Virus record (IMG/VR): IMGVR_UViG_2609459844_000007
Location: 1 to 15,367 of that record
Source: a virus
Lineage: Duplodnaviria > Heunggongvirae > Uroviricota > Caudoviricetes
Reading direction: 5' to 3' (one strand)
DNA length: 15,367 nt
Part shown: positions 277 to 15,367 of the stretch, in pieces
Numbering within the stretch: position 1 is the stretch's first letter
How the letters are laid out: every line of letters begins with the position of its first letter
The notes under the pieces: generated by a model
Databases searched by the model: none
What the model was told of the DNA's origin: nothing
The model's input: only the letters and a program-made list of their open reading frames with translations
Translations under genes and position numbers: made by a program

Positions 277-933
277 TTATTGCAATTGCACAAGAGTCAG
301 TTCGCCCCCAAAGACAGCACCGGTATCAATATAATGCAGGTTGCCAATATCCACGCGATGTCGCAACGGTGTATGACCAAACCAGAAATGATCAGCACCT
401 GTAATTCCCTGCCCTTTTTGGCGTTCACCTAATCGCGAGCGGCTCCACAAGACCTGATGCAAATCAACGTCCTTTTGCCATTCATAAACATCATCTGGAT
501 AATCGGCATGAGCAATAACATGTTTGCCGGTACGACTGTGTACTTCAAGAATAAAGGGCAAATGCTGACATTTTTCCAGCGCCGTTTTCGCTTGTTTCTG
601 TTGATTATCTGCCAGCGCAATAAACCAGTCGCCGCCATTCATCAACCACAAAGACATCTGCTGGGATGCCAGCGCATCCATCGCCATCTGTTCATGATTG
701 CCTCTTACCGCACAAACCCAATGTTGTTCCAGTAACTGCAGACAACGTAAACTTTGCGGCCCACGATCGATAACGTCTCCTACTGAGATAAGTAAATCTC
801 GCCACGGATCAAAACGACAATGCCATAATTTGCGGCGCAACTGCTCAAGACAACCGTGTATATCGCCAGAAAGCCAGATATGTCGCCATTGATGACCCGC
901 AATTCTCTGATAAACGGGCGCAGGCTGTTTCAT
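277..933 (-). CDS. pphA: Serine/threonine protein phosphatase 1 (PrpA), calcineurin-like metallophosphatase, 218 aa
   Basis: Translation contains metallophosphatase motifs GDIHG, GDVIDRG, GNHE; sequence matches recalled E. coli PrpA; track ORF 277..936 begins MMKQ, second Met taken as start. Confidence 0.9.
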   Translation of the reverse strand: MKQPAPVYQRIAGHQWRHIWLSGDIHGCLEQLRRKLWHCRFDPWRDLLISVGDVIDRGPQSLRCLQLLEQHWVCAVRGNHEQMAMDALASQQMSLWLMNGGDWFIALADNQQKQAKTALEKCQHLPFILEVHSRTGKHVIAHADYPDDVYEWQKDVDLHQVLWSRSRLGERQKGQGITGADHFWFGHTPLRHRVDIGNLHYIDTGAVFGGELTLVQLQ

Positions 934-1065
934 CAATATTTTCCTCCCGCGCTAAAGATCACATAATCTTAACAAGAATGTTAAAAAACGCTGGACTCAG
1001 ACAGTAGAGTGTGTGTTATGGTTGACTATAAAGTCAGCGAAGGAAATGCTTCTGGCTTTTAACAG

Positions 1066-1397: not shown

Positions 1398-1535
1398 TCA
1401 TTTATCTCCGACCGGAAACTTCTTATACAAAGTCGATACGCCAACATCATAGATGATCGCCACCTTCTGGCGAGAAACTCCTGATGCAATTAGTCGTCCA
1501 GCCTGCGCCCATTGCTCCGGCGTGAGAGTAAGACA
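1398..1535 (-). pseudogene. 3' remnant of a Pin/Gin/Hin-family serine DNA invertase gene (C-terminal HTH only, about 45 codons, no start codon, catalytic domain absent)
   Basis: Minus-strand translation ...LTLTPEQWAQAGRLIASGVSRQKVAIIYDVGVSTLYKKFPVGDK* resembles the recalled C-terminal DNA-binding end of PinE-type invertases; in-frame stop immediately upstream. Confidence 0.7.
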
Positions 1536-1610
1536 TTAAACTGTAGAAAAATCTCATTAAACTTAATATAATAATAAGTTACAGAATTATCTTTACTGAA
1601 TAATAGATAT

Positions 1611-2156
1611 ATGAACATTAGTGAACTTAAAAACTGTATACACTATGAAGTAATAGGTTATAAACGCCCTTTCTCCTGGCGAAAAGCAATTGTTCGCGCA
1701 ATAAAACACAGAAGATTACGTTATTTATTTTGGTGGCGCATAGCAAAATATCTTTTTGATAAAGGCGGATACCGGCGAAAGGTTGCAGGAAAAATAGAAC
1801 GCTTCATTCTTGATAAATACAATGTAACCGTTCCCTTAACTGTAAATATTGGTAAAGGGTTCGACATATCTTATCTCAATGGCGTTGTTATCGGTCACAA
1901 AGTTACAATAGGTGAAAATTGTTCAATTAAGCCTGGAGTAACTATTGGACTTCGCGGTGAATTTAATGATATGGATATTGTCATAGGAAATAATGTAACC
2001 ATCGGCTGTAACGCCACCATCCTTGGTGGCAAAGTGCATATAGGGAATAATGTAAAAATAGGAGCTCATGCATTGGTACTGCATGACATTCCTGATGACT
2101 CCACATTCATTACTAAATTTCACTCTGAAATTATTTATAACTCATCTCACACATAA
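1611..2156 (+). CDS. Hexapeptide-repeat (left-handed beta-helix) acyl/acetyltransferase, 181 aa, CysE/LacA/WbbJ/NeuO-like superfamily
   Basis: Visible [LIV]-G-x4 hexapeptide repeats (VIGHKVTIGENCSIKPGVTIG, IVIGNNVTIGCNATILGGKVHIGNNVKIGAHALV); markedly AT-rich relative to neighbours; convergent with tfa. Confidence 0.8.
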   Translation: MNISELKNCIHYEVIGYKRPFSWRKAIVRAIKHRRLRYLFWWRIAKYLFDKGGYRRKVAGKIERFILDKYNVTVPLTVNIGKGFDISYLNGVVIGHKVTIGENCSIKPGVTIGLRGEFNDMDIVIGNNVTIGCNATILGGKVHIGNNVKIGAHALVLHDIPDDSTFITKFHSEIIYNSSHT

Positions 2157-2166
2157 TTCCGTTTAA

Positions 2167-2739
2167 TCACAGCTCTGGCCATACGATATCCGGGGCTGTA
2201 TTTATATCAATCCGACTCACTAATACCCGGTATTTTTTCCAGGAAGATAGCATCGAGACTTCCTCATCAGTTGCCATTTCAAAATTAACAGCATCCTGCA
2301 GAATTGTTATGTTATCAGTCGCTTCCTGGATTAATCTTGCCTTTTTCTCTTCCGCCTCCCGGATCCGGAACAGTTTTTCTGCTTCTGCATCTTTCACCCA
2401 AGCTGTGCCGTTCCACTTCTGAAACTCCCCATCCGGCGACAACCAGGTGACATTTTTCGGTAATGGGCCAAGTTCAGAAATAAATAACGCGTCGCCGGAA
2501 GCCACGTCATAGACGGTTTTACCCCGATGGTCTTCAATGAGATGCCACGATACCTCATCACTGTTGAAAACAGCCACAAAGCCAGCCGGAATATCTGGCG
2601 GTGCAATATCGGTACTGTTTGCTGGCAGACCTGTATGAGGCGGAATATATGCGTCACCGTCACCAATAAATTCATTAGTTCCGGTCAGCAGATTATAAAT
2701 TTTGATGGTTCGTGATTGTTCACTCATTCTGAATGCCAT
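2167..2739 (-). CDS. Tail fibre assembly protein (Tfa family, P2 gpG-like), 190 aa
   Basis: C-terminal region ([18 protein letters not shown]...[25 protein letters not shown]) matches the recalled conserved Tfa C-terminus; start overlaps tail fibre stop. Confidence 0.85.
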
Positions 2740-3854
2740 TATGCAAGCCTCACAATATAGTTAAATGCGATGTTTTTGACGGTGTTTTCCGCGTTACCAG
2801 CAGCGTTAACGGTGATGGTGTGTCCATGTGAGCCAATTGCAACGGAGTGCGTATGTGCACCAATACCGACAGTATGTGTATGCGCCCCAGCACTTGCTGC
2901 AGTACCTGATACTGAGTGGGTATGCGCGCCAGCAGAATTCGTTGCACCTAAGTGAGTTTGAGCAGAGTTCGACGAAGCTACTCTACCGGAGCTAACGTTA
3001 GCATTATCCCCCTGAGATATCGGATGCGTATGTGCACCTGCTGAAGCTGCTGTTCCGCTAACGCTATGGGTATGCGCACCAGTGTTATTCGTAGATTTAG
3101 TTCCATAATCAAACGATGATGTGTTTTTTGTCCCTAAATCTGTATTTGAAGCACTGGCGCTGTGGGTGTGCGATTTAATGCCGTCCTGTTCCTGGCTAAG
3201 AACATCACGTCCACTTGCAGGCTTACCTTTGATTGTCCAGCCACGCATATCAGGGATCACGCCTGACGGATAAGCGGCTGCAAGTTTCGGGTATGCAGAC
3301 TTGTCAAAAGTCTGTCCCTGCATCAGAGCATAACCAGATGGAACTGTATCTGATGGCCACGGGATCGGGGCACCTACAGGAAAGGTCGAATTATTTTCCA
3401 AACCAAGATATTTAAGGACATCAGCAACAGAGCTTTTTGCCAAAATATCTCGCCCAACCTGTGTCAGGTCAGCCAAATTAGCGGTATCTTGATTGGTAAA
3501 ATACGGTAATTTGTTTTCGGATGCTGAAAGATTAGCAAGTGCGGTAAGTATGGCATTAATTCTCTGATAGTTCTTATCTAATGCAGACGACATTTTTGCG
3601 ATAAAGCCTGCCTGATCGCCATCGTCCTGTACATCCAGTCCACTTTCATTTGCTGTATATTGTGCCATTGCAGATGCAATAAAGCTGGCCTGCCGAATAA
3701 CCTTATTGACTTGCGCACTGGATGCTTTCCCTGCTGTAAATCCGGATAAAAGCGCAGGCAACGCTTCCCATTCCTCCTGCGGCATAACATTGGCATTTTT
3801 ACCCGTTGCAAACGCTTTAAAGTCATTTTTCGCCATCAGAGTAATACTCCCCAT
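2739..3854 (-). CDS. Phage tail fibre protein (P2 gpH-like N-terminal region, collar-type C-terminal domain with GAHTHS repeats), 371 aa
   Basis: Segment [37 protein letters not shown] resembles recalled P2 gpH; repeated [19 protein letters not shown] motifs; position upstream of tfa. Confidence 0.8.
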
Positions 3855-4516
3855 GCTCCTATATCAAAACCACTGATGAATTCGTTATCCATATCAAAAC
3901 CAAAAAATTTTGAGCTTTCCGATGGGGTTTCCACCGAAGGTGTTTCAATGCCACCCGCCCATACCCCGGCGGCTTTTACTGTGAGATACCCCTGTTTAAT
4001 TGCCGCAATTAACTCACGCGATACATCTGAAATATCAGTATCAGGAAAGACCCAGACCGATATCGTCATGTCCTGGTTATCGACTATCTGCATTCGCAGC
4101 CCGGCTCCTGCTGTTACAGCGTCAAGAATTGCCGGAAGCGAATCATTCCGTCCGTCCCAGTTATTAATCGCAATCTTCGCTTTAAGAATGACACGATAGG
4201 TTTCATCGCTGAGGTACATGTATCCGGAATCAGGATCGTATGGTCCCTGCCATACCCCCTGATCATATCCAAGCCCGTCGGTATCCCAGCTGAAATAGAC
4301 ACCTGAGATAGGCTGGCTGACAATACGGCTACGTCCGATCCACAATCCCAGAATGTCAAGTTGCACACCAACCGCAGAGTCAATATCAAATGCAGTAATC
4401 AGCCCTCTGGTGGCAGCCGCAACATCAATAAGCGGCCGGGTCATCAGATCAACATGTGCAAGAAATTTAGGTTTGGTGGCGTGATAGTTTGTGATTAGTT
4501 CGGTGTATTTGCCCAT
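3836..4516 (-). CDS. Putative phage baseplate/tail protein (P2 gpI / e14 YmfQ position), 226 aa
   Basis: Long ORF between baseplate-J fragment and tail fibre in J-I-H-G order; overlapping start/stop coupling with both neighbours; family assignment by position only. Confidence 0.5.
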
Positions 4517-5094
4517 GACTCCACCGTTATAACGATATTTTCCGGGGTACAGGACGCAGATTCGTTATATCTGATATCAATGTTTGATGACGACAAAGCC
4601 CCCGGGGATTTCCCAATCGTCAGTTCCTGAATATCGTAATAGCGTGCATTCCCGCCACTCGCCACGCCAAGATTCGCCGGTGAGTAAATGCGACTTAAAA
4701 GGACTGAATCACCAATCGTCAGACTATTGATATAGTCGGAAATAGCCTGCTGGATCTGCTGCCCTATCTGTGAGGTATAACCCGTAAAAACTTTTAATTT
4801 AATCCGGGCATAAACAGGCACATCACTGGAACGCGAGAATTTGATTACATGGGGATTGCCGTATTTATCCGGAACCGTAACGGATGTTGTACCGTGAGTG
4901 GCTGTCCCCTGGCCTTTATTCCCTCTGATAGCCTGAGCAATATCCGTCACATCACCGCCATCCACAATTACAGCAACAGAGTGTGGCGGTAACCCGTTAC
5001 CGTCCTCCGAACCAGTATCGTTTTCATAGAGTTTGTGGCGGGTTACACCGGTAACATTAGAAACAGCACCATCCAGTGCTTCAAATGGGGTTAA
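4495..5094 (-). pseudogene. Baseplate J-like protein, C-terminal fragment (5' end deleted)
   Basis: ORF has no plausible native start (track begins at a TTG inside the junction); reading frame runs directly out of the truncated dnaC-like gene; position upstream of gpI-like gene. Confidence 0.6.
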
Positions 5095-5497
5095 CCACAA
5101 TCACTGTCTGACCGTCTTTCAGCAGGCGATTCCCGATAGCTGCCGCTAAGTGATTCTTCCCGGTACCAGGTTTTCCGCTGAACGCAAAATTTGTACACCC
5201 GGTCATCAGTTCATCGGCGATGGATTTCGCCTGGCTTAACGCGTGTCGCTGGCCGTCGTTCTGCACCTGGTAATTCGCAAACGAGCATTTACGGTGCAAC
5301 GGCTGGATGCCTGAGCGATTCAGAATTTTTTCCACCCGCAACTGGCGATTCAGGCGGTTGATCTCCTCGCTACGTTTCTGGCCTTCAGCAAGTTGCCACT
5401 CGCGCCACTCCGCTACCGTTCTGAATGGTGCGGTTACATGTGGCGGAGTCAGTCGGCGGATGCGTTCCAGAACGCCGCCTGTCGCAATATTTTTCAT
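5081..5497 (-). pseudogene. DnaC-like phage replication protein (helicase loader, YdaV-like), N-terminal 135 aa only; reading frame leaves DnaC homology after ...GQTVIVV and stops
   Basis: Strong resemblance to recalled E. coli DnaC N-terminal half including Walker A GKPGTGKNHLAAAI; DnaC homology ends at about 5093 then NPI-stop. Confidence 0.8.
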
Positions 5498-5503
5498 GGT
5501 CCG

Positions 5504-6298
5504 TTACCCCCTGAAGCCTGGCGGGATCGCACTGTCCGGCAACGAGACGGTGTTAACCTGTCGGAGCAACGTCTCAGGCCGAACACCTTTCGGCGCGAAC
5601 AGGCCCTGGTATTCATTGGCGATACTGTGTCGAATCACCTGCTCGGGTGTAAAACCCTGCTGGCGGAATTTTTCCAGCTCCCGTATCGCCCCGTTAGCGC
5701 CCTGCTCCGTTCGAATCGGTTTTCGCAATGCCTGCCTGAACCGGACCCACTCATGCCAGAGTGTTTCCGGCAACCAGTCAGGCAGCTCAATAGCCTCCGG
5801 CTCAAATTTTTTAGACGCTCGTTTTTGGCGAGGGGGATTTAGGGGGAGATCAGTATTTATATCTTCCTCTTCCTCTTCCTCTTCCTCTGGTAACGCTTTT
5901 TGATCCATTTGTGTAACGCTGCCAGCGTTACCTTTTCGTTTCAGTTCGCGTATTTTTGTAACTCGCTCGTTTGTAACCGCCCGTTTTTTAGAGCTTTTTC
6001 CGTTATGACGTTCAAAGTTAGGTAGAGAAAGCCCAACGTCATTTTCGACCAGCCATCCAACCTGAATTAACGCATCAGCAAAACCAGCCATAAAAGTGAT
6101 GCGATCTATTGCACTTTTTGTAACGCCGCGAGCGTTACAATCTGCATTACCGTCTATCATTTGTTGATCCGCCCATGCCCAGAAGCGAATAACCTTCCCT
6201 AATGCGGCATCTGGATCAATATTCAGAATCTCAGCAAGCCTGAATATTTCCGGCTTATCCGGCGTAATAACCTCGAGCTTTATCCAGTTTGAAGCCAT
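5504..6298 (-). CDS. Phage replication initiation protein (YdaU-like), 264 aa, with internal poly-Glu tract
   Basis: Position between CII-like gene and dnaC-like gene as in Rac (ydaT-ydaU-ydaV); family assignment by position and recollection. Confidence 0.65.
   Translation of the reverse strand: MASNWIKLEVITPDKPEIFRLAEILNIDPDAALGKVIRFWAWADQQMIDGNADCNARGVTKSAIDRITFMAGFADALIQVGWLVENDVGLSLPNFERHNGKSSKKRAVTNERVTKIRELKRKGNAGSVTQMDQKALPEEEEEEEEDINTDLPLNPPRQKRASKKFEPEAIELPDWLPETLWHEWVRFRQALRKPIRTEQGANGAIRELEKFRQQGFTPEQVIRHSIANEYQGLFAPKGVRPETLLRQVNTVSLPDSAIPPGFRG
5863..5888. repeat. Simple sequence repeat (cttcct)x4, encoding the EEEEEEEE tract of the replication protein on the minus strand
   Basis: Direct reading of sequence. 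Confidence 0.9.
5913..5931. promoter_or_regulatory. 19-bp palindrome gtaacgc-tgcca-gcgttac (copy 1 of 3), candidate protein-binding site/iteron
   Basis: Perfect 7-bp inverted arms with 5-bp spacer; same arms recur at 6120 and 6312. Confidence 0.45.
6120..6138. promoter_or_regulatory. 19-bp palindrome gtaacgc-cgcga-gcgttac (copy 2 of 3)
   Basis: Direct reading; 207 bp from copy 1. Confidence 0.45.
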
Positions 6299-6311
6299 TT
6301 GTTTTCACCTT

Positions 6312-6330
6312 GTAACGCTCGCAGCGTTAC
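6312..6330. promoter_or_regulatory. 19-bp palindrome gtaacgc-tcgca-gcgttac (copy 3 of 3), just upstream of the replication gene start
   Basis: Direct reading; 192 bp from copy 2. Confidence 0.45.
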
Positions 6331-6375
6331 ATTTAACTGATACCGAACAAAACAATCCGGCACGATTAATTTCAA

Positions 6376-6798
6376 TCAATGCACTACGACAGAATCGCCG
6401 GGCGACCCACCACCGCTGAAATGTGCTTTCCGGTAAACGGCCTGGACTGCATCATCATGCGCATCAATTGCCGTACTCAACGCTTCCTGCGCCGCCAGTA
6501 ATGCACGGCGTTCCAGGGTATCGAAGATGCAGAGTCGGTGACGCAGCTCGCGCGGAAGAATTGCCAGAACCGCAGGGATCAGTTTCTGAATTTTTTCCCT
6601 TTGCGCTTTCGTTTCACCTTTCAACCAACGGTGATAGATATTCTGCTGATTGTTCCAGTCCTTGCCTGGTACAAGGGGCAATTCGCCGCCCCCCTGGCGC
6701 AGATATTCTTCAGTAATTGCGTTAGCGACCCACGCCTGCCCTTTTTCGGCTGCCAGGGCTAACAACACTGATTCGATGTGCTCATGCCTGATTTTCAT
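6376..6798 (-). CDS. ydaT: YdaT-like (CII-like) prophage regulatory protein, 140 aa
   Basis: Sequence resembles recalled Rac YdaT; overlaps upstream Cro-like gene by 4 nt; position downstream of cro. Confidence 0.7.
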   Translation of the reverse strand: MKIRHEHIESVLLALAAEKGQAWVANAITEEYLRQGGGELPLVPGKDWNNQQNIYHRWLKGETKAQREKIQKLIPAVLAILPRELRHRLCIFDTLERRALLAAQEALSTAIDAHDDAVQAVYRKAHFSGGGSPGDSVVVH

Positions 6799-7037
6799 GA
6801 ATCAACCGCTCCTATGCTGTTTTCGCTATGCTTACCGTCTGGGGGGAATACATCGTCAAGTCCACAATGAGCGCCAAGCCGATTAAGGGTAGAAACAATT
6901 TTTCTGCACTCCTCTAGTCCAGGGGTACGAAAATTTGCTTCGTAATTTGCCAGTCGGCTTTGTATCCACCCTAACTGAACAGCAAGTTGTCTTTGAGACA
7001 GCCCAAGCTGTTTTCGATATGTTGAAATTTTGTTCAT
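6795..7037 (-). CDS. Cro-like HTH DNA-binding protein (YdaS-like), 80 aa
   Basis: HTH LGLSQRQLAVQLGWIQSRLANYEA; divergent from repressor gene; GGAGG Shine-Dalgarno 6 nt upstream of ATG. Confidence 0.75.
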   Translation of the reverse strand: MNKISTYRKQLGLSQRQLAVQLGWIQSRLANYEANFRTPGLEECRKIVSTLNRLGAHCGLDDVFPPDGKHSENSIGAVDS

Positions 7038-7061
7038 TGAAAACCTCCGATGACAATTTTA

Positions 7062-7122
7062 AACACACCTTGTGTTATATGGTCAAGCTGTTTTGTGTTT
7101 TATGTAAATCACGATTCGTGAT
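7062..7122. promoter_or_regulatory. Right operator region: inverted repeats aacac-N5-gtgtt (7062..7076), degenerate copy (7085..7099), atcac-N5-gtgat (7108..7122) at 23-bp spacing, between divergent cro-like and repressor genes
   Basis: Direct reading; candidate -35 TTGACC on minus strand (complement of 7081..7086) for the cro-like gene. Confidence 0.6.
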
Positions 7123-7133
7123 ACAAGGATGCA

Positions 7134-7553
7134 ATGGAAAAAGAAAACGAAAAAATTGCCGCCAGTAGGCTCAATGACAAAATTGCAATGCGTCTTAAAG
7201 AGCGCAGGCAGAAGCTTGGTTTATCTCAAGGAAAACTTGCTGAAATCTGCGGATGGACGCAATCGCGTATAGGTAACTATGAGGCGGGCAGCAGAAATGT
7301 TGGAGTGCATGACGCTGTCGTATTGGGAAAGGCACTTGGCATATCTCCTCCTGAGCTCCTCTTTGGAGAACAGGAATCTTCTGAATTGTGGTTAAATGAA
7401 TCCCAACGAAAACTTCTTGAGTTGTTTAACCAGCTACCGGGCTCAGAACAACAACGAATGATTGAGCTATTTGAAGTCCGGCTAAAAGAAATCGATGAGT
7501 ATGTAGAAAAATATTTGAGAGGCAGGCTTAAAGATAATCCCCCACCGGAGTAA
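7134..7553 (+). CDS. CI-like prophage repressor, XRE-family HTH, 139 aa, no LexA/S24-like peptidase domain
   Basis: HTH LGLSQGKLAEICGWTQSRIGNYEA nearly identical in the recognition region to the Cro-like protein; divergent arrangement across operators. Confidence 0.8.
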   Translation: MEKENEKIAASRLNDKIAMRLKERRQKLGLSQGKLAEICGWTQSRIGNYEAGSRNVGVHDAVVLGKALGISPPELLFGEQESSELWLNESQRKLLELFNQLPGSEQQRMIELFEVRLKEIDEYVEKYLRGRLKDNPPPE

Positions 7554-7583
7554 TGATCTTGCTATCACAGTAATATGCCAATC

Positions 7584-7608
7584 AGCCCGCTATCAGCGGG
7601 CTTTTTTG
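7584..7608 (+). terminator. Rho-independent terminator after repressor gene (agcccgct-atc-agcgggct + TTTTTTG)
   Basis: Perfect 8-bp stem, 3-nt loop, U-tract. Confidence 0.75.
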
Positions 7609-7637
7609 TACCATCATCATATGACACTCACCGAAAA

Positions 7638-7679
7638 AACACATTTCGTGTTGACATAAGAAAACGCATTGTGTTTAAT
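7638..7679 (+). promoter_or_regulatory. PL-like promoter (TTGACA 7651..7656, 17-bp spacer, TTTAAT 7674..7679) with overlapping operator aacac-N5-gtgtt (7638..7652) and a second degenerate operator (7661..7675)
   Basis: Direct reading; same operator motif and 23-bp phasing as in the right operator region. Confidence 0.6.
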
Positions 7680-7853
7680 AAGCATATCCAAACAACGCCC
7701 CATCAGAGAACGGCAGGACAATACCTCGAGTTATCCAGTCACTGAACAGGGCTAAGTAGCCAGCCTGAGGCATACGAACATGACGGCAGTTGTTGATTGA
7801 TACAAAGCGCAGTAGATAAAACGTTCCGCCACCCGGCGTTAAGGGGAAAAAAG

Positions 7854-8072
7854 ATGGTTGGTGAAGATCTGGTTGTTATTAACGGTCAATTGTGCAGCAA
7901 AGATGTGGCAGCCATGCTTATTAGCAAGGTTCTTCCAACTGTGCTGGAGGTCATTGCAGAAAAAGTAAAGGCTGGTCGTCCAGACAAGGAAGTTGAAGAG
8001 GCGGCAAAAACAGTTGTTCATGCCGCTACAGAAGCAATTATTTTGAAGAGCCTAGTTTCGCCCAAGCCTTAA
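7854..8072 (+). CDS. Hypothetical small protein, 72 aa (MVGEDLVVINGQ...), first ORF downstream of PL-like promoter
   Basis: Strong SD AAGGGG 7 nt upstream of ATG at 7854; T7 tract 8085..8091 downstream; no recognisable family. Confidence 0.5.
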   Translation: MVGEDLVVINGQLCSKDVAAMLISKVLPTVLEVIAEKVKAGRPDKEVEEAAKTVVHAATEAIILKSLVSPKP

Positions 8073-8232
8073 GTGAATCGGCGCTTTTTTTAGCATCACG
8101 TTCATTGAGTAGTGACAAAAACTCATTCTCAGCATTCTCGATTTCCGAGAAAAATTCTTGATGAGTTGTTTCTCGCTGCGATCTGATGCTGAAAACTAAA
8201 GCAAGTAGCCAGGCTTTGTCTTTATTATCCAT
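8038..8232 (-). CDS. Hypothetical small protein, 64 aa (MDNKDKAWLLALVFSIRSQRE...), convergent with and overlapping the 3' end of the 72-aa ORF
   Basis: SD AAGG 7 nt upstream of ATG; candidate sigma70 promoter on minus strand (-10 TATACT = complement of 8267..8272, -35 TTTACC); no family recognised. Confidence 0.35.
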   Translation of the reverse strand: MDNKDKAWLLALVFSIRSQRETTHQEFFSEIENAENEFLSLLNERDAKKSADSLKAWAKLGSSK

Positions 8233-8418
8233 AGGAATACCTTATTACTGGTTGTGTGAGAACTCCAGTATACCACCGAGCCTGAAGTGGTAAAAAGACA
8301 GGCGCACAACACGAAGGCGCATTTCCGGTATTCATAAAGAGTCGGACTTGTCTGTTAAATTTAAATGGTGGGAGTGCGCCTCCGGTTGTAAATAACGACA
8401 TTGCTATGTGTAGTCTTT

Positions 8419-8462
8419 GGCGGCATCAGTTCTACTCCGTGGCTGCCCTGCCGCCCCTTTTT
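8419..8462 (+). terminator. Terminator-like GC stem (ggcggca ... tgccgcc) followed by TTTTT, inside noncoding region upstream of kilR
   Basis: Direct reading; large loop, so strength uncertain. Confidence 0.35.
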
Positions 8463-8627
8463 AAAGTGAATTTTGTGATGCGGTGAATGCGGCTAAGCGC
8501 ACGCGGCACAGTTAAAAGCATCAGTGTTATGGGTGGATTATCCGGCGTTAATTGTTAACTGGTTAACGTCACCTGGAGGCACCAGGCACCGCATCGACAA
8601 AATTCATTTGTAAAAATGGTGATAATT

Positions 8628-8849
8628 ATGATTGCTCATCACTTCGGAACTGATGAAATACCACGTCAGTGTGTGACCCCTGGCGATTATGTTCTTCATG
8701 AAGGTCGGACATATATCGCCTCGGCAAACAATATTAAAAAGCGAAAACTTTATATTCGAAGCCTGACAACAAAAACATGCATTTCTGACTGCATGATTAA
8801 AGTCTTCCTCGGTCGTGATGGTTTACCTGTAAAGGCGGAGTCATGGTAA
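8628..8849 (+). CDS. kilR: KilR-like cell-division inhibitor (Rac kil), 73 aa
   Basis: Sequence [35 protein letters not shown]... matches recalled Rac KilR; gene order kilR-ydaE-racC-recE; track ORF starts 12 nt upstream at 8616 without an SD. Confidence 0.8.
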
Positions 8850-9019
8850 TGACTAAGAAAATAAAATGTGCTTATCACCTTTGCAATAAAGAAATTGAAG
8901 AAAGCAAAATCATTACAAGACCACTTCATTTCATGCGTGAAGTTATACCAACGACGGAAATGAAAAAATATTGTAGTGAAATCTGTGCCGAAAAAGACCA
9001 GATGGCACACGAACTTTAA
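8849..9019 (+). CDS. ydaE: YdaE-like small Cys-rich metal-binding protein, 56 aa (not in ORF track because under 60 aa)
   Basis: Manual translation [56 protein letters not shown]; start overlaps kilR stop (TAATG); position as in Rac. Confidence 0.7.
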   Translation: MTKKIKCAYHLCNKEIEESKIITRPLHFMREVIPTTEMKKYCSEICAEKDQMAHEL

Positions 9020-9093
9020 TTAACTGACTATCCGAAACTGAATTTATGCCAGCAATGGCAGGGATTCGCTCAACCTTAATTAAGGAGAAAAAC

Positions 9094-9369
9094 ATGATTA
9101 CCAGTTATGAAGCCACTGTTGTTACTACTGATGACATTGTTCACGAAGTCAGCCTGGAAGGAAAGCGTATTGGCTACGTGATTAAAACAGAAAATAAAGA
9201 AACCCCTTTCACTGTGGTTGATATCGACGGTCCATCAGGCAACGTTAAAACGCTTAACGAAGGCGTCAAAAAAATGTGCCTGGTGCATATCGGAAAGAAT
9301 CTGCCCGCAGAAAAAAAAGCCGAATTTCTGGCAACTCTGATTGCAATGAAATTAAAAGGTGAAATCTGA
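9094..9369 (+). CDS. racC: RacC-like protein, 91 aa
   Basis: AAGGAG SD 6 nt upstream of ATG at 9094; sequence matches recalled Rac RacC; track ORF starts further upstream at 9046. Confidence 0.8.
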   Translation: MITSYEATVVTTDDIVHEVSLEGKRIGYVIKTENKETPFTVVDIDGPSGNVKTLNEGVKKMCLVHIGKNLPAEKKAEFLATLIAMKLKGEI

Positions 9370-9374
9370 AAGAA

Positions 9375-9399
9375 ATAGCCTGCGTATGGCGCAGGCTAT
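9375..9399 (+). other. Perfect 10-bp inverted repeat hairpin (atagcctgcg-tatgg-cgcaggctat) without U-tract, between racC and recE
   Basis: Direct reading. Confidence 0.6.
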
Positions 9400-9469
9400 G
9401 AACAGTGTGTATCCGGCAAGATTATTCACTGAACAAACGAATTTTAATCTGAGTTGAGGTTAAAAAACA

Positions 9470-12400
9470 ATGAGCACCGATAAACAAGTTTACCCACTGT
9501 ATTACGAAGCAAAAAATGACAAAGTAAGAAAACGTCTCGGTATTAAAGGCGGTTTTTACTGGGCTGAAGCGAAAAAATTATCCATTGCCATCTCCCGTGG
9601 TGCTGTTGCGATTGACGATGCTGGCTACGATGAAGATGACTTCAAAAAACCTGTTCGCGTCAATTTGCCCGTTGTTGATGACCTCCCGCCAGAAGGCGTA
9701 TTTGATACGGAATTCTGCAACCGTTACGAAAAAGGCGGGGAAGATGGCATCACAATGGTATTTATCGCGCCCTCACCCTCTGCGCAGGGCAAACCAGCCG
9801 GCACTGACAACACCAATGTTAATGGCGAAGACATGACGGAGATTGAGGAGAATATGCTACTCCCGATTTCTGGCCAGGAGCTGCCCATTCGCTGGCTTGC
9901 TCAACACGGCAGCGAAAAACCGGTAACGCACGTTTCACGCGACGAACTCCAGGCATTACACATTGCACGGGCTGAGGAACTACCAGCTGTTACTGCCCTA
10001 GCTGTTTCCCACAAAACCAGCCTGCTCGATCCGCTGGAAATTCGCGATCTCCACAAACTGGTGCGTGATACTGACAGAGTTTTCCCTAATCCAGGCAATT
10101 CAAGCCTGGGACTGATGACTGCTTTTTTCGAAGCATACATGAACGCAGACTACACCGATCGCGGTCTGCTGACAAAAGAGTGGATGAAAGGAAATCGTGT
10201 TTCACGCATCACGCGCACGGCTTCCGGCGCTAATGCTGGCGGCGGGAACCTCACCGATCGCGGCGAAGGTTTCGTTCACGATCTGACGTCACTGGCGCGC
10301 GACGTAGCCACTGGCGTACTGGCTCGTTCAATGGACGTGGACATTTATAACCTTCATCCGGCACACGCTAAACGTGTCGAGGAAATTATCGCTGAAAATA
10401 AACCGCCCTTTTCTGTTTTCCGCGACAAATTCATCACCATGCCTGGCGGGCTGGATTATTCCCGCGCCATCGTGGTTGCCTCCGTAAAAGAAGCACCAAT
10501 TGGGATCGAGGTTATCCCCGCACACGTCACTGAATATCTGAACAAAGTACTGACTGAAACTGATCATGCCAACCCTGATCCGGAAATCGTGGATATTGCC
10601 TGCGGTCGCTCCTCTGCCCCGATGCCGCAGCGTGTAACAGAAGAAGAAAAACAGGATGATGAAGAAAAACCGCAACCATCTTGCGCAATGGCAGATGAAC
10701 AGGCAACGGCTGAAACAGTGGAACCGGATGCAACTGAACATCATCAGGACACGCAGCCGCTGGATGCTCAGTCACAGGTAAATTCTGTTGATGCGAAATA
10801 TCAGAAACTGCGGGCAGAACTCCATGAAGCCCGGAAAAACATTCCGCCCAAAAATCCTGTCGATGCAGACAAATTACTGGCTGCCTCTCGCGGAGAATTT
10901 GTTGAAGGGATTAGCGACCCGAATGATCCGAAATGGGTTAAGGGGATCCAGACCCGCGATTCTGTGTACCAGAATCAGCCAGAAACGGAACAGAACGACC
11001 AGAAAGCGGAACAGAACAGCCCAAATACGCAACAAAACGAGCCAGAAACGAAACAGCCTGAGCCAGTAGTGCAACAACTGGAAACGGAGAAAGTTTGCAC
11101 CGCCTGCGGTCAGGCTGGCGGCGGCAACTGTCCTGACTGCGGCGCGGTGATGGGCGACGCAACGTATCAGAAAACCTTTAATGAAGAAAATCAGAATGAA
11201 TATCAGGAAAAAGGTCTGGAGGAAATGGAAGGTGCTGAACATCCGCACAAGGAGAACGCTGGCAGCAATCCGCATTGCGATTGCAGTGATGAAGCTGGTG
11301 AAGCGACAGCACCTGTAGTAACTGAAATCATGTGGCCGTCATATTTCGAGCCTGGCCGCTATGAAAACCTCCCGAACGAGGTTTATCACTCCGCCAACGG
11401 AATAAGCAGCACAATGCTGAAGGATGCCCGCATCAGCCTGATGTATTACCACGGACGGCACATTGCCGGAACTATTCCGGGCGAGGAAAGTGATGCATTG
11501 CTGCGTGGGCGAATTATTCACAGCTATGTTCTGGAAACGGATAAATTCGCTGATGAGTATGCCATTCCGGTACCGGTTCCTGAATATGTGGTTACTACTT
11601 CTAACGAACTGATCGCCATCATTAAAAAACACAATGCCAGTCTGCCAGCACCGATGACACCAGAGCAGATGAAAGAGTGGATCGAAAGCTACAACAGCAC
11701 TCTTATACAGCCACTGTCGGTAAGTGCCGGGGCCGAAGAAACAGGCATCCTTTACGGTTCGCTTCCGGAGGAATTCCGGCGTATTCCTGAGGGGGAAAAA
11801 CACACAGCATCAGCAATGAAAGCCTGTATTAAAGAATACAACGCAAACCTCCCTCCTCTGTTGAAAACCAGTGGATCACGGGAGCAACTTCTGGAGCAAA
11901 TTGAAACTGTAGATCCAGAACTGGCAAAAAAAGAACGTGCTAAATCTTTGCCTTACAACATCAGTGGCACAAAAGAGCAATTAACCGAAATCGCACGGAA
12001 AATTCGCCCGGAACTGGTGACACTGGAAGACTGGCAAAAACGCCAGCAAGAAGAAAACGCCGGGAAAACGTTTATCAGTCCGGATATGTATGAACAGGCA
12101 AAAAATATTCACGCTGCACTGCAAAACAATACCGATGCAGCAAGGCTACTCAACCACCCGGATCGCAAATCTGAAATCAGCTATTTCGGGTTTGATGAAG
12201 AAACCGGGCTGGAAATCAGGGTCCGTCCTGATATCGAAATCCGGCTGCCATACGAAAGCATTTGCGCCGACGTGAAGTCAGTCAGCCTCGGTTATGTGCG
12301 ACAGGAACGACTGAAAGATCGCCTGCACCGTGAAATTATTGAGCGTGATTATCACCTCAGCGCAGCAATGTATTGCGATGTGGCAAACCTGGACAAATTT

Positions 12401-12766
12401 TTCTGGATCTTCGTCAACAAAGATGCTGGCTATCACTGGGTGGCCGTCGTGGAAGCCTCGCAGGAACTCCTGGAACTTGGTCGACAGGAATATCGCCGGA
12501 CGCTACGACAGATAAATGAAGCTCTGGAGACAAACAACTGGCCAGCACCGATTACCGAAAGTTATACCGACGAATTAAACGACTTTGATCTTCGTCGTCT
12601 TGAGAAGATGATAAATAACCTGCCTTCATCAGGTGATCCAGAAGCAGAACAAAAATTTATTGCTCTGGAAAATACGCTGAATGCTGCACGACCACATCTG
12701 GGAGAATTATATGAGGCGTATAAAACGACACTGACAGATATGAAACCAGAATATATCGGCTCCTGA
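9470..12766 (+). CDS. recE: RecE-family exonuclease VIII homologue, 1098 aa, with divergent C-terminal PD-(D/E)XK nuclease domain carrying a ~150-aa insertion and a C-terminal extension
   Basis: N-terminal/central ~600 aa closely resemble recalled K-12 RecE (e.g. [43 protein letters not shown]); Cys4 cluster [16 protein letters not shown]; PD...DVK motif at 12227..12276. Confidence 0.85.
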
Positions 12767-12774
12767 TATTTACT

Positions 12775-12798
12775 ATGGCGGTGTAGCCTCACCGCCAT
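12775..12798 (+). other. Perfect 9-bp inverted repeat hairpin (atggcggtg-tagcct-caccgccat) between recE and ralR
   Basis: Direct reading. Confidence 0.6.
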
Positions 12799-12829
12799 AA
12801 CAAAACTTTATTTTATGAGAGAAAAGACA

Positions 12830-13024
12830 ATGCGGTATGAAAAAGTCAAACCATGTCCGTTTTGTGGTTGTCCATCAGTAACGGTGAAAGCCATTTCAGG
12901 ATATTACCGCGCAAAGTGTAACGGATGCGAATCCCGAACTGGCTATAGTGGAAGTGAAAAAGAAGCACTCGAAAGATGGAATAAACGAACTACTGGAAAT
13001 AATAATGGAGGTGTTCATGTATAA
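12830..13024 (+). CDS. ralR: RalR/Lar-like restriction alleviation protein, 64 aa
   Basis: MRYEKVKPCPFCGCPSVTVKAISGYYRAKCNGCESRTGY... matches recalled Rac RalR (Lar); Cys4 motif; track ORF begins at upstream ATG 12815. Confidence 0.8.
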   Translation: MRYEKVKPCPFCGCPSVTVKAISGYYRAKCNGCESRTGYSGSEKEALERWNKRTTGNNNGGVHV

Positions 13025-13205
13025 AATTACTGCCACTATTGAAAAGGAAGGTGGCACTCCTACTAACTGGACAAGGTACTCAAAAACAAAATTAACCAAA
13101 TCAGAATGCGAAAAAATGCTCTCAGGTAAAAAAGAAGCAGGCGTTTCCAGAGAGCAGAAAGTAAAGCTGATAAATTTTAATTGCGAGAAGCTTCTGTCCT
13201 CGTGA
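13017..13205 (+). CDS. ydaC: YdaC-like small protein, 62 aa
   Basis: GGAGG SD 5 nt upstream of ATG 13017; overlaps ralR stop; resembles recalled Rac YdaC; track ORF starts at 12948 inside ralR. Confidence 0.65.
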   Translation: MYKITATIEKEGGTPTNWTRYSKTKLTKSECEKMLSGKKEAGVSREQKVKLINFNCEKLLSS

Positions 13206-13260
13206 GTTGCATTATATACAAATTAGAACTTCATAGCTGATTATTAAAAATCAACCACCC

Positions 13261-13289
13261 CCGCCAGTATTCTGTATATTTACTGGCGG
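13261..13289 (+). other. 9-bp inverted repeat hairpin (ccgccagta ... tactggcgg, 11-nt loop) between ydaC and xis
   Basis: Direct reading. Confidence 0.55.
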
Positions 13290-13305
13290 TCATATCGTAA
13301 GAGGT

Positions 13306-13592
13306 ATGGCAATGAATCTTGTGACACTAAAAACGTGGGGAAACTCAGATATCCAGATAACCCACCATCAATATCAACGCTGAGACGATGGGCAAGGAAT
13401 GGAAACATTTATCCTGCACCTGAACTACACGGGAGGAGTTACAGGGTGGTTCCGGAGGCTTTCTATATCAACCCAAATAAGGTTGATACCGATATAACAC
13501 ACCATCAGCCTAATGGGCGACAAGGGAGAGACAGTCCGTTACTGGAGAAGTTAAAACATGCAGCGGAAAAAATACGATCCCAATTTGCCTAA
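13306..13592 (+). pseudogene. Excisionase (lambda Xis-like winged helix) with apparent -1 frameshift in a G4 run (13337..13340); downstream frame opens with GTG at 13335
   Basis: Frame 1 from ATG 13306 encodes MAMNLVTLKTWG then stops; frame 3 continues KLRYPDNPPSISTLRRWARNGNIYP...; together they align with the recalled lambda Xis N-terminus (LTLQEWNARQRRPRSLETVRRWVRE). Confidence 0.55.
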
Positions 13593-14634
13593 AAACTTAA
13601 CATATCGAAGGAGGGACAAAGCATATTACTGGCGCAACCCTATGACGAAAGAAGAATTTACACTAGGTAAAATTTCAAGAAGAGATGCAGTAGCGCAGGC
13701 AATTGAAGCAAATCATTATATATACAAAAACTACTCTCCTGCTGCCTTAATTGAAAAGCTTAAAGGGTTCGACTCATTTACTATGGCAGACTGGATTGAA
13801 CGTTACAAAACGATTCTTATAAGGAGAAAAGTGTCCAGAAATACTTATAAAATTCGGGTAAATCAACTGGAGACAATAAAAGAAAAATTGGGAGGGATTT
13901 TACTGACAGAAATAACCACTCGCCATATTGCCGAGTTTCTTGATTTGTGGATTGAAGGAGGGAAAAACACGATGGCAGGATCAATGCGTTCTGTGTTATC
14001 TGATATGTTCCGCGAGGCCATTGTTGAAGGACGTATATCTCAAAATCCAGTAACGCCAACAAGAGCACCGAAAATAGTAGTTACAAGAGAACGGCTGAAA
14101 CTAAAGACATACAACTGCATCAGGGAGGCAGCAGATCAACTTCCGACATGGTTCCCATTAGCTATGGACTTAGCCCTTGTAACAGGACAACGTCGCGAAG
14201 ACATAACGAATATGCGGTTCAGTGAGATTTATGATGATCGTCTCCACATCAGGCAAATTAAGACAGGAATGATGATTGCTATCCCCCTGTCACTCAGCCT
14301 TCCTGTCGCTGGTTTACGACTTGGTGCAGTAGTTGAACAGTGCCGCATGGTAAGTAGGGGGGATTATCTAATCAGTGCCGGGATTAGAAAAAACAGCCCT
14401 GACGGTAGCATTCACCCGGACGGCCTGACAAAGAAATTTGTCGCAGCCAGAAAATTAACAGGTATCCAGTTCAGTGAAAACCCACCAACTTTTCACGAGA
14501 TCAGAAGCCTGGCTGGACGATTGTACAAAGAAACATGTGGAGAAGAATTTGCTCAGCGTCTACTTGGCCACACATCGGAGAAGACAACAAAAATGTATCT
14601 TGATGAGAGAGAAAAAACGTACTTACTGCTCTGA
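13558..14634 (+). CDS. int: Tyrosine integrase, lambda Int family, 358 aa
   Basis: N-terminus aligns with recalled lambda Int (PPNLYIRNNGYYCYRDPRTGKEFGLG versus [27 protein letters not shown]); catalytic-region motifs [21 protein letters not shown]-terminal Tyr in TTKMYLDE. Confidence 0.9.
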
Positions 14635-14730: not shown

Positions 14731-14763
14731 AGACGTTTGCAACTAATTGATTTTAAATACAAT

Positions 14764-14795
14764 TAAAAAAAGACCGAATACGATTCCTGTATTCG
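14764..14795. repeat. Right prophage-chromosome junction: att-core copy that is also the terminator hairpin of sdsR
   Basis: Imperfect direct repeat of 1066..1098; perfect hairpin gaccgaatac-gattcct-gtattcggtc. Confidence 0.65.
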
Positions 14796-14868
14796 GTCCA
14801 GGGAAATGGCTCTTGGGAGAGAGCCGTGCGCTAAAAGTTGGCATTAATGCAGGCTTAGTTGCCTTGCC
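14764..14868 (-). ncRNA. sdsR: SdsR (RyeB) RpoS-dependent small RNA, about 105 nt
   Basis: Minus-strand sequence GGCAAGGCAACUAAGCCUGCAUUAAUGCC...GGACCGAAUACAGGAAUCGUAUUCGGUC(U)n matches recalled SdsR; sigmaS-type -10 CTATTCT (complement of 14874..14880) upstream; terminator hairpin plus U-tract. Confidence 0.85.
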
Positions 14869-14955
14869 CTTTAAGAATAGATGACGACGCCAGGTTTTCC
14901 AGTTTGCGTGCAAAATGGTCAATAAAAAGCGTGGTGGTCATCAGCTGAAATGTTA

Positions 14956-15025: not shown

Positions 15026-15367
15026 TTAACAGAGTTTTTCAGCTCGTTCTATAAACGGTGCCAGACTCATTTTTTCGCCGGGATTGTTAGGATCATCAAT
15101 CTGAATCACCGAAATGGGTTGGGCTTTAGTCTTCCCACTGGCAACTTCCTTTTGTGCGATATCGTTTAAAGGATACTGCACGAGGGTACTTGGGTTAATG
15201 ACATACAAAGCATTACCCGGTCTGCAAGTCAGCATCACCTCTTCGCGATTAAACGCCCATTTGTCTTTACCCACTTCAAAACGACTGACGGTAATCACCT
15301 GCGGTGCAGCCAGCGCCGCTGCAGAACTGGTGAGTAACAGAAACGTCAGAATACTTTTTTTCATCAT
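15026..15367 (-). CDS. yebY: YebY, DUF2511-family secreted protein with signal peptide, 113 aa
   Basis: [23 protein letters not shown] signal peptide; matches recalled E. coli YebY; start codon is the last triplet of the window. Confidence 0.85.

Follow-up and report, generated by a model that had tools for sequence, protein, structure and literature searches.

The 1098-residue open reading frame (ORF) described here is, with a probability of about 0.86, a strain-private, in-frame recE::recT' fusion produced by a 917-bp deletion in a Gifsy-type recET module. It was found in a 15,367-nt stretch of viral DNA (hereafter the window). The module would belong to a Rac-like prophage of E. coli 2-156-04_S3_C1, inserted between pphA and ryeA/ryeB-yebY, in which illegitimate recombination at a short microhomology (4 bp exact, 7 of 8 overall) would have led to the loss of 917 bp. 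Through this deletion recE would have been joined, in frame, to the final 54 codons of recT, while the RecT core was lost. The RecE part (residues 1–1044) belongs to a known RecE subfamily, of which it is an ordinary representative. Since a private deletion has fused an ordinary recE to the end of recT in a decaying prophage, the RecE-RecT' arrangement is a mutational remnant, the product of ordinary decay of genes in a known system, and no new architecture.

Table 1. Features of the window, with positions in nucleotides from its first letter.
Feature	Position	Strand	Details
Second private deletion junction (at 5092/5093)	4495..5497	-	baseplate J/gp47 C-terminal remnant joined to ydaV N-terminal 135 codons
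recE::recT' fusion ORF	9470-12766	+	1098 aa; real, uninterrupted, in frame
recE-derived part	9470..12603	+	RecE residues 1-1044/1045; 99% identity to L001 5971-9134
Exonuc_VIII (PF06630) N-terminal region	9623..10036	+	residues 52-189; Pfam E=1.1e-36
C-terminal PD-(D/E)XK nuclease domain, Gifsy type	11327..12601	+	residues 620-1044; DUF3799 PF12684
H684	11519-11521		catalytic residue
All-helical insert	11579..12067	+	163 aa, residues 704-866; putative SAP-like helix-extended-loop-helix repeats
RPD motif	12224-12232		contains D921 (12230-12232)
DVK motif	12269-12277		D934 (12269-12271), V, K936 (12275-12277)
Deletion junction	12596..12603	+	CGTCTTGA (recE side) + CGTATTGA (recT side)
recT-derived tail	12604..12766	+	RecT 297/298-350 + recT stop codon, recT frame; 52/54 residues identical to L001 RecT C-terminus
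Perfect 10-bp hairpin	12774..12799	+	TATGGCGGTG-TAGCCT-CACCGCCATA; normal recT-ralR intergenic hairpin, kept in intact prophages
ralR toxin gene	12830..13024	+	annotation transferred from L001
Antisense RalA sRNA	13023-13201	-	Rfam RF02694, 212 bits

Composition of the ORF and the deletion junction

The assignment of the ORF to RecE (exodeoxyribonuclease VIII), already proposed in an earlier note on this DNA, is supported by its family profile, its Pfam domains and the match of its structural model. The protein gives a full-model match to the NCBIfam equivalog NF007259 (1570.4 bits, for a cutoff of 1269), with residues 1–1049 aligned to model positions 1–875 of 877. A Pfam scan of the 1098 residues matched DUF3799 (PF12684) at residues 862–1026 (E=4.9e-13) in addition to the N-terminal Exonuc_VIII region. 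As the earlier note had recognized, the N-terminal and central regions resemble those of the K-12 protein, with an identity of about 90% or more over residues ∼110–617.

The C-terminus had been described as a ∼50-residue tail appended to RecE. A 54-residue tail is indeed present, but it corresponds to residues 297–350 of RecT, and its interpretation as a RecE extension was therefore rejected. The RecT Pfam core spans residues 30–209 of the intact 350-aa protein and is entirely deleted in the window. As the retained residues lie outside this domain, the tail does not include the annealing core, and the Pfam scan of the 1098-aa protein returned no match to the RecT domain (PF03837). The recE part falls short of an intact 1049-aa allele only by the last four codons (ALSI) and the stop codon.

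In close relatives of this prophage, the gene order is recE (1042–1049 aa), recT (350 aa), ralR. I used as a reference the locus L001, from E. coli STEC367, in which recE spans 6001–9150 and recT 9162–10214, followed by ralR. The window is collinear with this locus on both sides of the junction, as positions 9440–12603 match 5971–9134 with 99% identity, and positions 12596–13255 match 10044–10703 with 98% identity. The 917 bp that are absent relative to intact relatives encompass the last 4 recE codons and stop, the spacer, and recT codons 1–296. The exact microhomology TTGA, at 12600–12603, is common to both sides of the junction. The same gap is seen against strain C25, and recurs against FDAARGOS_1289, which has the identical integration site, when a 21-bp allele difference is allowed for. 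In all comparable prophages examined both recE and recT are present.

These alignments also clarify what follows the ORF. The hairpin and ralR had been correctly placed directly after it. An intact recT is absent before ralR, as had been reported, but the last 163 nt of the gene are present as the tail of the ORF; the prophage thus does contain recT sequence, in the degenerate form of a remnant inside the ORF itself. The notion of an unusual natural exonuclease VIII without its annealase is not supported, as the 917-bp deletion removed the RecT core. A promoter and terminator scan of positions 8900–13400 gave nothing above chance and left the recT-ralR hairpin unflagged.

The exact protein is known from a single contig, in the draft assembly of E. 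coli 2-156-04_S3_C1, where it is annotated as "exodeoxyribonuclease 8" (KDW02153.1); a non-E. coli source for the window was rejected on this basis. Its 90% identity cluster has 1143 members, with usual lengths of 1028, 1042 or 1049 residues. The recE-recT' junction was found in 0 of 5,426 complete E. coli genomes; both halves of the query are present in 193 of these, and are joined in none. The window also includes a second private deletion, of 26,924 bp, in which replication, lysis, head and tail genes were lost. With these essential genes gone as well, the prophage is a cryptic remnant.

The nuclease domain and its helical insert

The C-terminal domain is divergent, as had been noted, with 29% identity to K-12 RecE over residues 901–1026, and its catalytic residues H684, D921, D934 and K936 align with H652, D748, D759 and K761 of the K-12 protein. 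The RPD and DVK motifs had been identified correctly, although their positions were off by 1–3 nt (see Table 1 for the correct ones). The K-12 nuclease domain structure (PDB 3H4R) aligns to the ORF in two blocks, residues 637–705 and 899–1030. The best PDB match identified by Foldseek for an AF2 model of residues 620–1098 (pLDDT 71.8) is also 3H4R (E=4.1e-8, TM-score normalized to the target 0.58). Confidence is low at the start of the modelled domain (its first 53 residues) and in the RecT-derived tail (pLDDT 34–59), so that only conservation speaks for the folding of the fusion; no docked tail was placed on the nuclease domain, but the tail values are too low to judge docking. The conserved ...FDLRRLE end is retained along with every catalytic residue, and the fusion protein is probably still able to fold into an active 5'-3' dsDNA exonuclease. 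The locus would be unable to perform RecET single-strand-annealing recombination unless another annealase were supplied, and it would normally be repressed, by analogy with the recET genes of Rac and Gifsy lysogens.

An insertion of ∼150 residues had been described in this domain. It is real (about 140–160 residues relative to K-12 RecE, with repeats), and is the normal, conserved state of a widespread and known subfamily, the Gifsy-type RecE. In a MAFFT alignment with K-12 RecE and short DUF3799 nucleases, the insert amounts to 163 residues for ∼26 in K-12, a net gain of ∼137, and it replaces a disordered rim loop of K-12 RecE (residues 665–698, around 669–694). The whole 425-aa domain is collinear with that of Gifsy-1 RecE (52% identity, 100% coverage), and full-length homology extends to Citrobacter proteins. 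Across 14 diverse members the insert is found at the same site, with a length of 159–180 residues, and it is carried by at least 25 clusters at 50% identity, as well as by stand-alone nucleases of ∼430 residues. Among 50,697 phage records it occurs in 20, including Gifsy-1/2, HK225 and mEp237. Other members of the subfamily are SPN3UB, FSL SP-016, PHB10, Klebsiella prophages and phages, Aeromonas pAEv1818 and Rac-SA53. An insertion private to the strain was rejected on the basis of its presence in Gifsy-1 RecE, in many clusters and in these phage records.

Three segments of ∼17 residues within the insert had been described as related. Residues 711–726 and 780–795 are related (ungapped BLOSUM62 score 37), as are residues 730–745; however, the segments do not form one family, as residues 834–849 pair instead with 802–817 (score 35). 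These scores are above the mean of shuffled sequences (23.8, sd 3.5), yet 1 of 200 shuffles reached 41, making the signal modest in a single sequence; the repeats appear convincing only through their conservation in homologues. I scanned the window's own insert against Pfam and PHROGs, and the Pfam search returned no significant family, with only sub-threshold hints of SAP_new25 (E=0.087) and Ish1. The SAP signal (Pfam PF02037) emerged only on scanning diverse homologues, with matches in 8 of 10 homologous inserts, two of which (25.4 and 31.4 bits) exceed the gathering score of 23.9 bits.

The presence of the insert is linked to a feature of the partner protein, a C-terminal RecT extension of ∼105 residues (∼245–350), about half of which (297–350) is kept in the fusion. 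In the set of 50,697 phage records, co-occurrence of the insert (20 records) with the extension (21 records) is perfect, and the two stand together in 20 of 20 phage genomes. The pair is retained where the RecT core has diverged, and neither is found when a short nuclease is paired with, or fused to, a closely related RecT core. This co-occurrence suggests that the insert and the extension may interact. A probable role of the insert is to assist in capturing duplex DNA at the mouth of the channel; it may also, or instead, dock the RecT extension. A more specific and tentative model is that the SAP-like insert could be a docking platform for the ∼105-aa extension, perhaps doubling as a duplex-DNA clamp. 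In the literature outside subscription journals, no description was found of the insert, or of its link to the RecT extension.

Alternative explanations for the fusion

An uninterrupted, in-frame ORF, the presence of the catalytic motif and the lack of an intact recT before ralR would all fit a natural long RecE variant, with a private repeat insertion and a C-terminal extension, working without a dedicated annealase. This is barely credible, as the supposed extension matches the C-terminus of RecT at 52 of 54 residues and terminates with the stop codon of recT, and relatives 97–99% identical on both flanks have recT in between. In addition, the insertion is common to hundreds of RecE homologues accompanied by recT, whereas the 1098-aa form is a singleton. 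That the junction is known from one public contig, and from 0 complete genomes, could also indicate an assembly or sequencing artefact of the draft genome, the strain having in reality intact recE and recT genes. I consider this improbable: assemblers collapse long repeats, not 4-bp matches, and only 4 bp of exact homology exist at the junction, within flanks of unique sequence. The deletion is also cleanly in frame, and the independent 26.9-kb private deletion in the same prophage is typical of real decay.

The fusion might instead have been selected or neofunctionalised, with a docking peptide in cis that auto-occupies the RecT-binding site, recruits SSB, or is dominant-negative against the RecT of incoming phages; alternatively, loss of recT might have been favoured, as annealases can be toxic or trigger defence. 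The deletion does keep the reading frame, each part retains its conserved end, what is left of RecT falls within the extension that accompanies the insert-type nuclease, and natural full RecE-RecT fusions such as phiV10 gp37 exist. Such selection is nevertheless highly improbable for a singleton allele that has not spread, in a decaying prophage, given that one third of deletions are in frame by chance, that only about half of the extension is retained, and that AF2 did not dock the low-confidence tail on the domain. The private deletion in recET is thus the reading retained here. In itself the fusion is of little importance, as a loss-of-function deletion private to one strain, in a prophage that is cryptic, but the annotation of KDW02153.1 conceals a RecE-RecT' chimera, a caution that recombinase genes of unusual length, or seemingly "orphan" ones, can turn out to be fusion pseudogenes when they come from draft genomes.

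Comparison with known recombination systems

The side result on the insert is of some value to recombineering and phage biology, as its coupling to the RecT extension nominates regions for the RecE-RecT interaction, and candidates for engineering partner specificity. If correct, the docking model would provide a concrete, testable account of how RecE recognises RecT, listed as unknown in a 2023 review (PMC11611040), and the fusion in the window would be a natural construct that combines the nuclease with half of a docking peptide in cis. A precedent is found in lambda, where the annealase Red-beta docks on the exonuclease via a separate C-terminal domain, as seen in the complex of lambda Exo with this domain (PDB 6M9K; PMC6393309). 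The RecT extension may behave comparatively as such a docking module, although the folds and families differ; whether RecT uses a C-terminal domain like that of Red-beta is given as unknown in the same review (PMC11611040).

The phiV10/epsilon15-type gp37, a natural RecE-RecT fusion of 586 residues, likewise consists of a DUF3799 nuclease followed by RecT-derived sequence in one polypeptide, and its RecT core has 60% identity with RecT from the Gifsy-type module. However, gp37 keeps a complete DUF3799 domain (21–254) and a complete RecT domain (310–490), whereas no RecT domain is left in the fusion described here; its nuclease is short and has no insert, and its RecT part has no C-terminal extension.

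Among the closest systems are the Gifsy-1 and Gifsy-2 RecET of Salmonella, with a nuclease domain collinear over its length, insert included, and a long RecT with the matching C-terminal extension as partner. The intact E. coli alleles (1042–1049 aa, with a RecT of 350 aa) belong to this group, and the Gifsy recET genes are functional once derepressed (PMC3121763). Gifsy-type loci possess separate, complete recE and recT genes, while the window has a single ORF from which RecT 1–296 and the last 4 RecE residues are gone. With the Rac prophage of E. coli K-12 (exonuclease VIII, 866 aa; RecT, 269 aa), the window shares the neighbourhood kilR-ydaE-racC-recE-recT-ralR-xis-int, an N-terminal part (∼617 residues) ∼90% identical from residue 110, and the PD-DXK catalytic residues and fold. 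It differs in its nuclease domain, only ∼29% identical and with the SAP-like module of 163 residues in place of loop 669–694, and in the deletion of the RecT core; the 350-aa RecT cognate to its allele group shows no BLASTP similarity to K-12 RecT, though both belong to the Pfam RecT family. Two coupled additions distinguish Gifsy-type RecET from the K-12 pair: the nuclease has a SAP-like module in its DNA-capture loop, and RecT has a C-terminal extension.

Origin of the 1098-codon reading frame

In the protein encoded by this frame, Pfam places Exonuc_VIII at residues 52–189 and DUF3799, a PD-(D/E)XK family, at residues 862–1026, and the NCBIfam exodeoxyribonuclease VIII equivalog matches at 1570 bits (cutoff 1269), with the match confined to residues 1–1049. 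Relative to K-12 RecE (866 aa, from NC_000913), residues ~110–617 are near-identical, and the nuclease domain is ~29% identical, with two aligned blocks flanking a long unmatched stretch. The description of a RecE-like protein in the earlier note was therefore substantially correct. Just 5′ of recE, at the racC position, lies a 107-aa ORF (9046–9369, + strand) with no Pfam family; in relatives this position holds 91–98-aa proteins annotated as hypothetical.

Features of the window
Feature	Position	Strand	Remark
pphA, metallophosphatase	277–936		one end of the window
Hexapeptide-repeat acetyltransferase ORF	1611–2156	+	within 1462–3675
Tail-fibre assembly gene	2167–2739	-	within 1462–3675
Tail-fibre gene, distal part			within 1462–3675
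Second private deletion junction	5092/5093 (region 4495–5497)		ydaV joined to baseplate J/gp47
recE-derived fusion ORF	9470–12766	+	single ORF, 1098 codons
Hairpin 3′ of the ORF	12774–12799		normal recT-ralR junction of intact prophages
ralR	12830–13024		part of the same normal junction
Antisense RalA sRNA	13023–13201
Integrase	13558–14634
SraC/RyeA and SdsR/RyeB sRNA genes	14761–14905	both	between integrase and yebY, adjoining the attachment site
yebY	15026–15367		other end of the window

The earlier note also saw a tail appended to RecE, and an unusual arrangement in which exonuclease VIII lacks its annealase; what it observed is largely right, but neither of these two readings is supported. 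On sequence comparison, a single 917-bp deletion accounts for both the tail and the absence of recT. In complete E. coli genomes, megablast recovered the whole query as two pieces over ~4.2 kb, annotated as recE and RecT family recombinase. In E. coli STEC367, recE (6001–9150, 1049 aa) is followed by a RecT-family gene (9162–10214, 350 aa) and then by ralR. Window 9440–12603 corresponds to STEC367 5971–9134 at 99% identity, and window 12596–13255 to 10044–10703 at 98%; STEC367 9135–10051 (917 bp) is therefore absent from the window. Lost with this stretch are the recE stop and the four codons before it (ALSI), an 11-nt spacer, and recT codons 1–296. The deletion edges read CGTcTTGA and CGTaTTGA, with an exact TTGA common to both at window 12600–12603. 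The fusion reads on in the recT frame and ends in ...EYIGS at the recT stop codon, so that the supposed RecE appendage is a remnant of RecT 297–350, identical at 52 of 54 residues. Relatives do possess recT, and because the RecT domain occupies residues 30–209 of the 350-aa protein (Pfam), the annealase core is wholly deleted in the window. The 917-bp gap is also present against strain C25, and an equivalent gap is found against FDAARGOS_1289, whose prophage is at the same chromosomal site, after allowing for a 21-bp allele difference.

The frame is thus very probably (about 0.86) a recE::recT′ fusion, private to the strain, that a deletion made out of a known recET module of the Gifsy type carried by a cryptic prophage, and as such it is ordinary and already explained. 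That the fusion is private is seen with a 327-nt query centred on the recE/recT junction: 193 of 5,426 complete E. coli genomes match it, each as two separate halves, and the joined junction occurs in none of the 5,426. In a collection of 15 billion proteins a single contig carries the exact 1098-aa sequence (KDW02153.1, 'exodeoxyribonuclease 8', E. coli 2-156-04_S3_C1), and its 90% cluster holds 1143 members, with usual lengths of 1028, 1042 and 1049.

The surrounding prophage and the state of the nuclease

The window covers an entire prophage remnant, from pphA to yebY. The equivalent prophage in C25 is ~42 kb; here the loss of 26,924 bp at 5092/5093, with genes for replication, lysis, head and tail, leaves ~13.5 kb. 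At this junction the DnaC-like replication gene ydaV, cut after its first ~135 codons, abuts the C-terminal part of baseplate J/gp47; none of the 5,426 complete E. coli genomes contains the junction. The 917-bp gap could in principle be an assembly artefact, but a second independent private deletion in the same element speaks against this. Two such deletions in one element are the signature of ordinary prophage decay. Elsewhere in the remnant, a DicF-family antisense sRNA (8405–8456, + strand, Rfam 60.9 bits) lies 5′ of kilR in the immunity-proximal region, and window 1462–3675, unmatched in the otherwise ~98%-identical C25 prophage, resembles an exchanged cassette for host range or cargo.

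RecE loses no more than four terminal residues to the deletion, all poorly conserved, and keeps its conserved end motif. Residues H684, D921, D934 and K936 align with K-12 H652, D748, D759 and K761, and the model of the domain has RecE 3H4R as its best PDB match (E=4e-8). The fusion would probably be an active exonuclease, and the locus would be expected to lack single-strand-annealing recombination unless a foreign annealase were supplied.

The insert in the nuclease domain

MAFFT was used to align the domain with K-12 RecE, with DUF3799 nucleases that stand alone and are short (~275 aa), and with a varied set of long homologues. The insertion reported earlier is real: 163 residues (704–866) stand in for ~26 in K-12 (P669–K694), and the short nucleases have 'xDRRTKAGKExxxxF' at this site. 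The insert is conserved and widespread, and not peculiar to the window gene. The 425-aa domain is 52% identical to Gifsy-1 RecE over 100% of its length, and Citrobacter proteins are similar. In a 50%-identity cluster library, alignments run through the insert for at least 25 clusters of 800–1100-aa proteins and for several ~430-aa nucleases that stand alone; in many nucleases of ~280 aa, only the blocks on either side match. Across the 14 diverse members that were extracted, the length of the insert stays within 159–180 aa, and tblastn found it in 20 phage records, including Rac-SA53, Gifsy-1, Gifsy-2, SPN3UB, FSL SP-016, HK225, mEp237, PHB10, Klebsiella prophages and Aeromonas pAEv1818. According to the statement in PMC3121763 that cites Lemire et al. 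(2008), derepressed Gifsy recET genes suppress recombination defects, so the insert-type nuclease is functional.

AlphaFold2 models the insert confidently as ten helices (mean pLDDT 89 alone, 85–95 inside the domain model). The three related segments noted earlier do reflect repeats, but mix two kinds: an 'h-x-x-I-K-E-Y-N-A-x-L-P' helix in three copies (711, 730, 780) and an 'S-G-[ST]-[KR]-E-Q-L-x-E-I...P-E-L' helix in two (802, 833). Repeat scores are 33–37, against a shuffle mean of 23.8 (sd 3.5, maximum 41). Of 10 diverse homologous inserts, 8 have a Pfam SAP (PF02037) match to the second kind of helix, two of these above the gathering score, and the insert reads as a putative tandem SAP-like module. 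Because its position coincides with K-12 RecE loops 665–698, it may have a role in duplex capture. A distant RecE-like protein (P0186) carries a different tandem repeat, 'GxPExxxxKPTDKxIE...W', and no SAP-like module at the same loop, a site that seems prone to gain repeat modules.

Coupling of the insert to a RecT extension

Among 50,697 phage records, the RecT core (residues 10–223) is found in 82 and the C-terminal extension (~105 aa; queried as 225–350, match spanning ~245–350) in 21. These are the 20 insert records, so that insert and extension co-occur in 20 of 20, and the partial record KF879864, in which the extension match lies at the sequence end. In Aeromonas pAEv1818, whose nuclease carries the insert, the extension is the only part of RecT recognisable by tblastn. 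Some RecT cores are nearer the window's type than that of HK225, yet lack the extension and pair with insert-less nucleases. The coupling may reflect linkage by common descent. By analogy to lambda Red-beta, which docks on lambda Exo via its C-terminal domain (PMC6393309), the extension may dock on the insert; RecT use of a docking C-terminal domain is listed as an open question in a review (PMC11611040). AlphaFold2 did not place the fused tail, which is the C-terminal half of the extension, on the nuclease domain (tail pLDDT 34–59). The putative link of insert to extension, drawn from comparison, is the sole element of wider interest here.

Two phages are examples of such nearer RecT cores that lack the extension. 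Yersinia phage vB_YenM_29.18 pairs a 311-aa RecT with a 272-aa DUF3799 nuclease lacking the insert. In the viable phage phiV10, gp37 (2116–3876 of the phiV10 locus) naturally joins an insert-less DUF3799 nuclease to RecT; this one polypeptide of 586 aa contains both domains complete and is a functional counterpart of the window's degenerate fusion.
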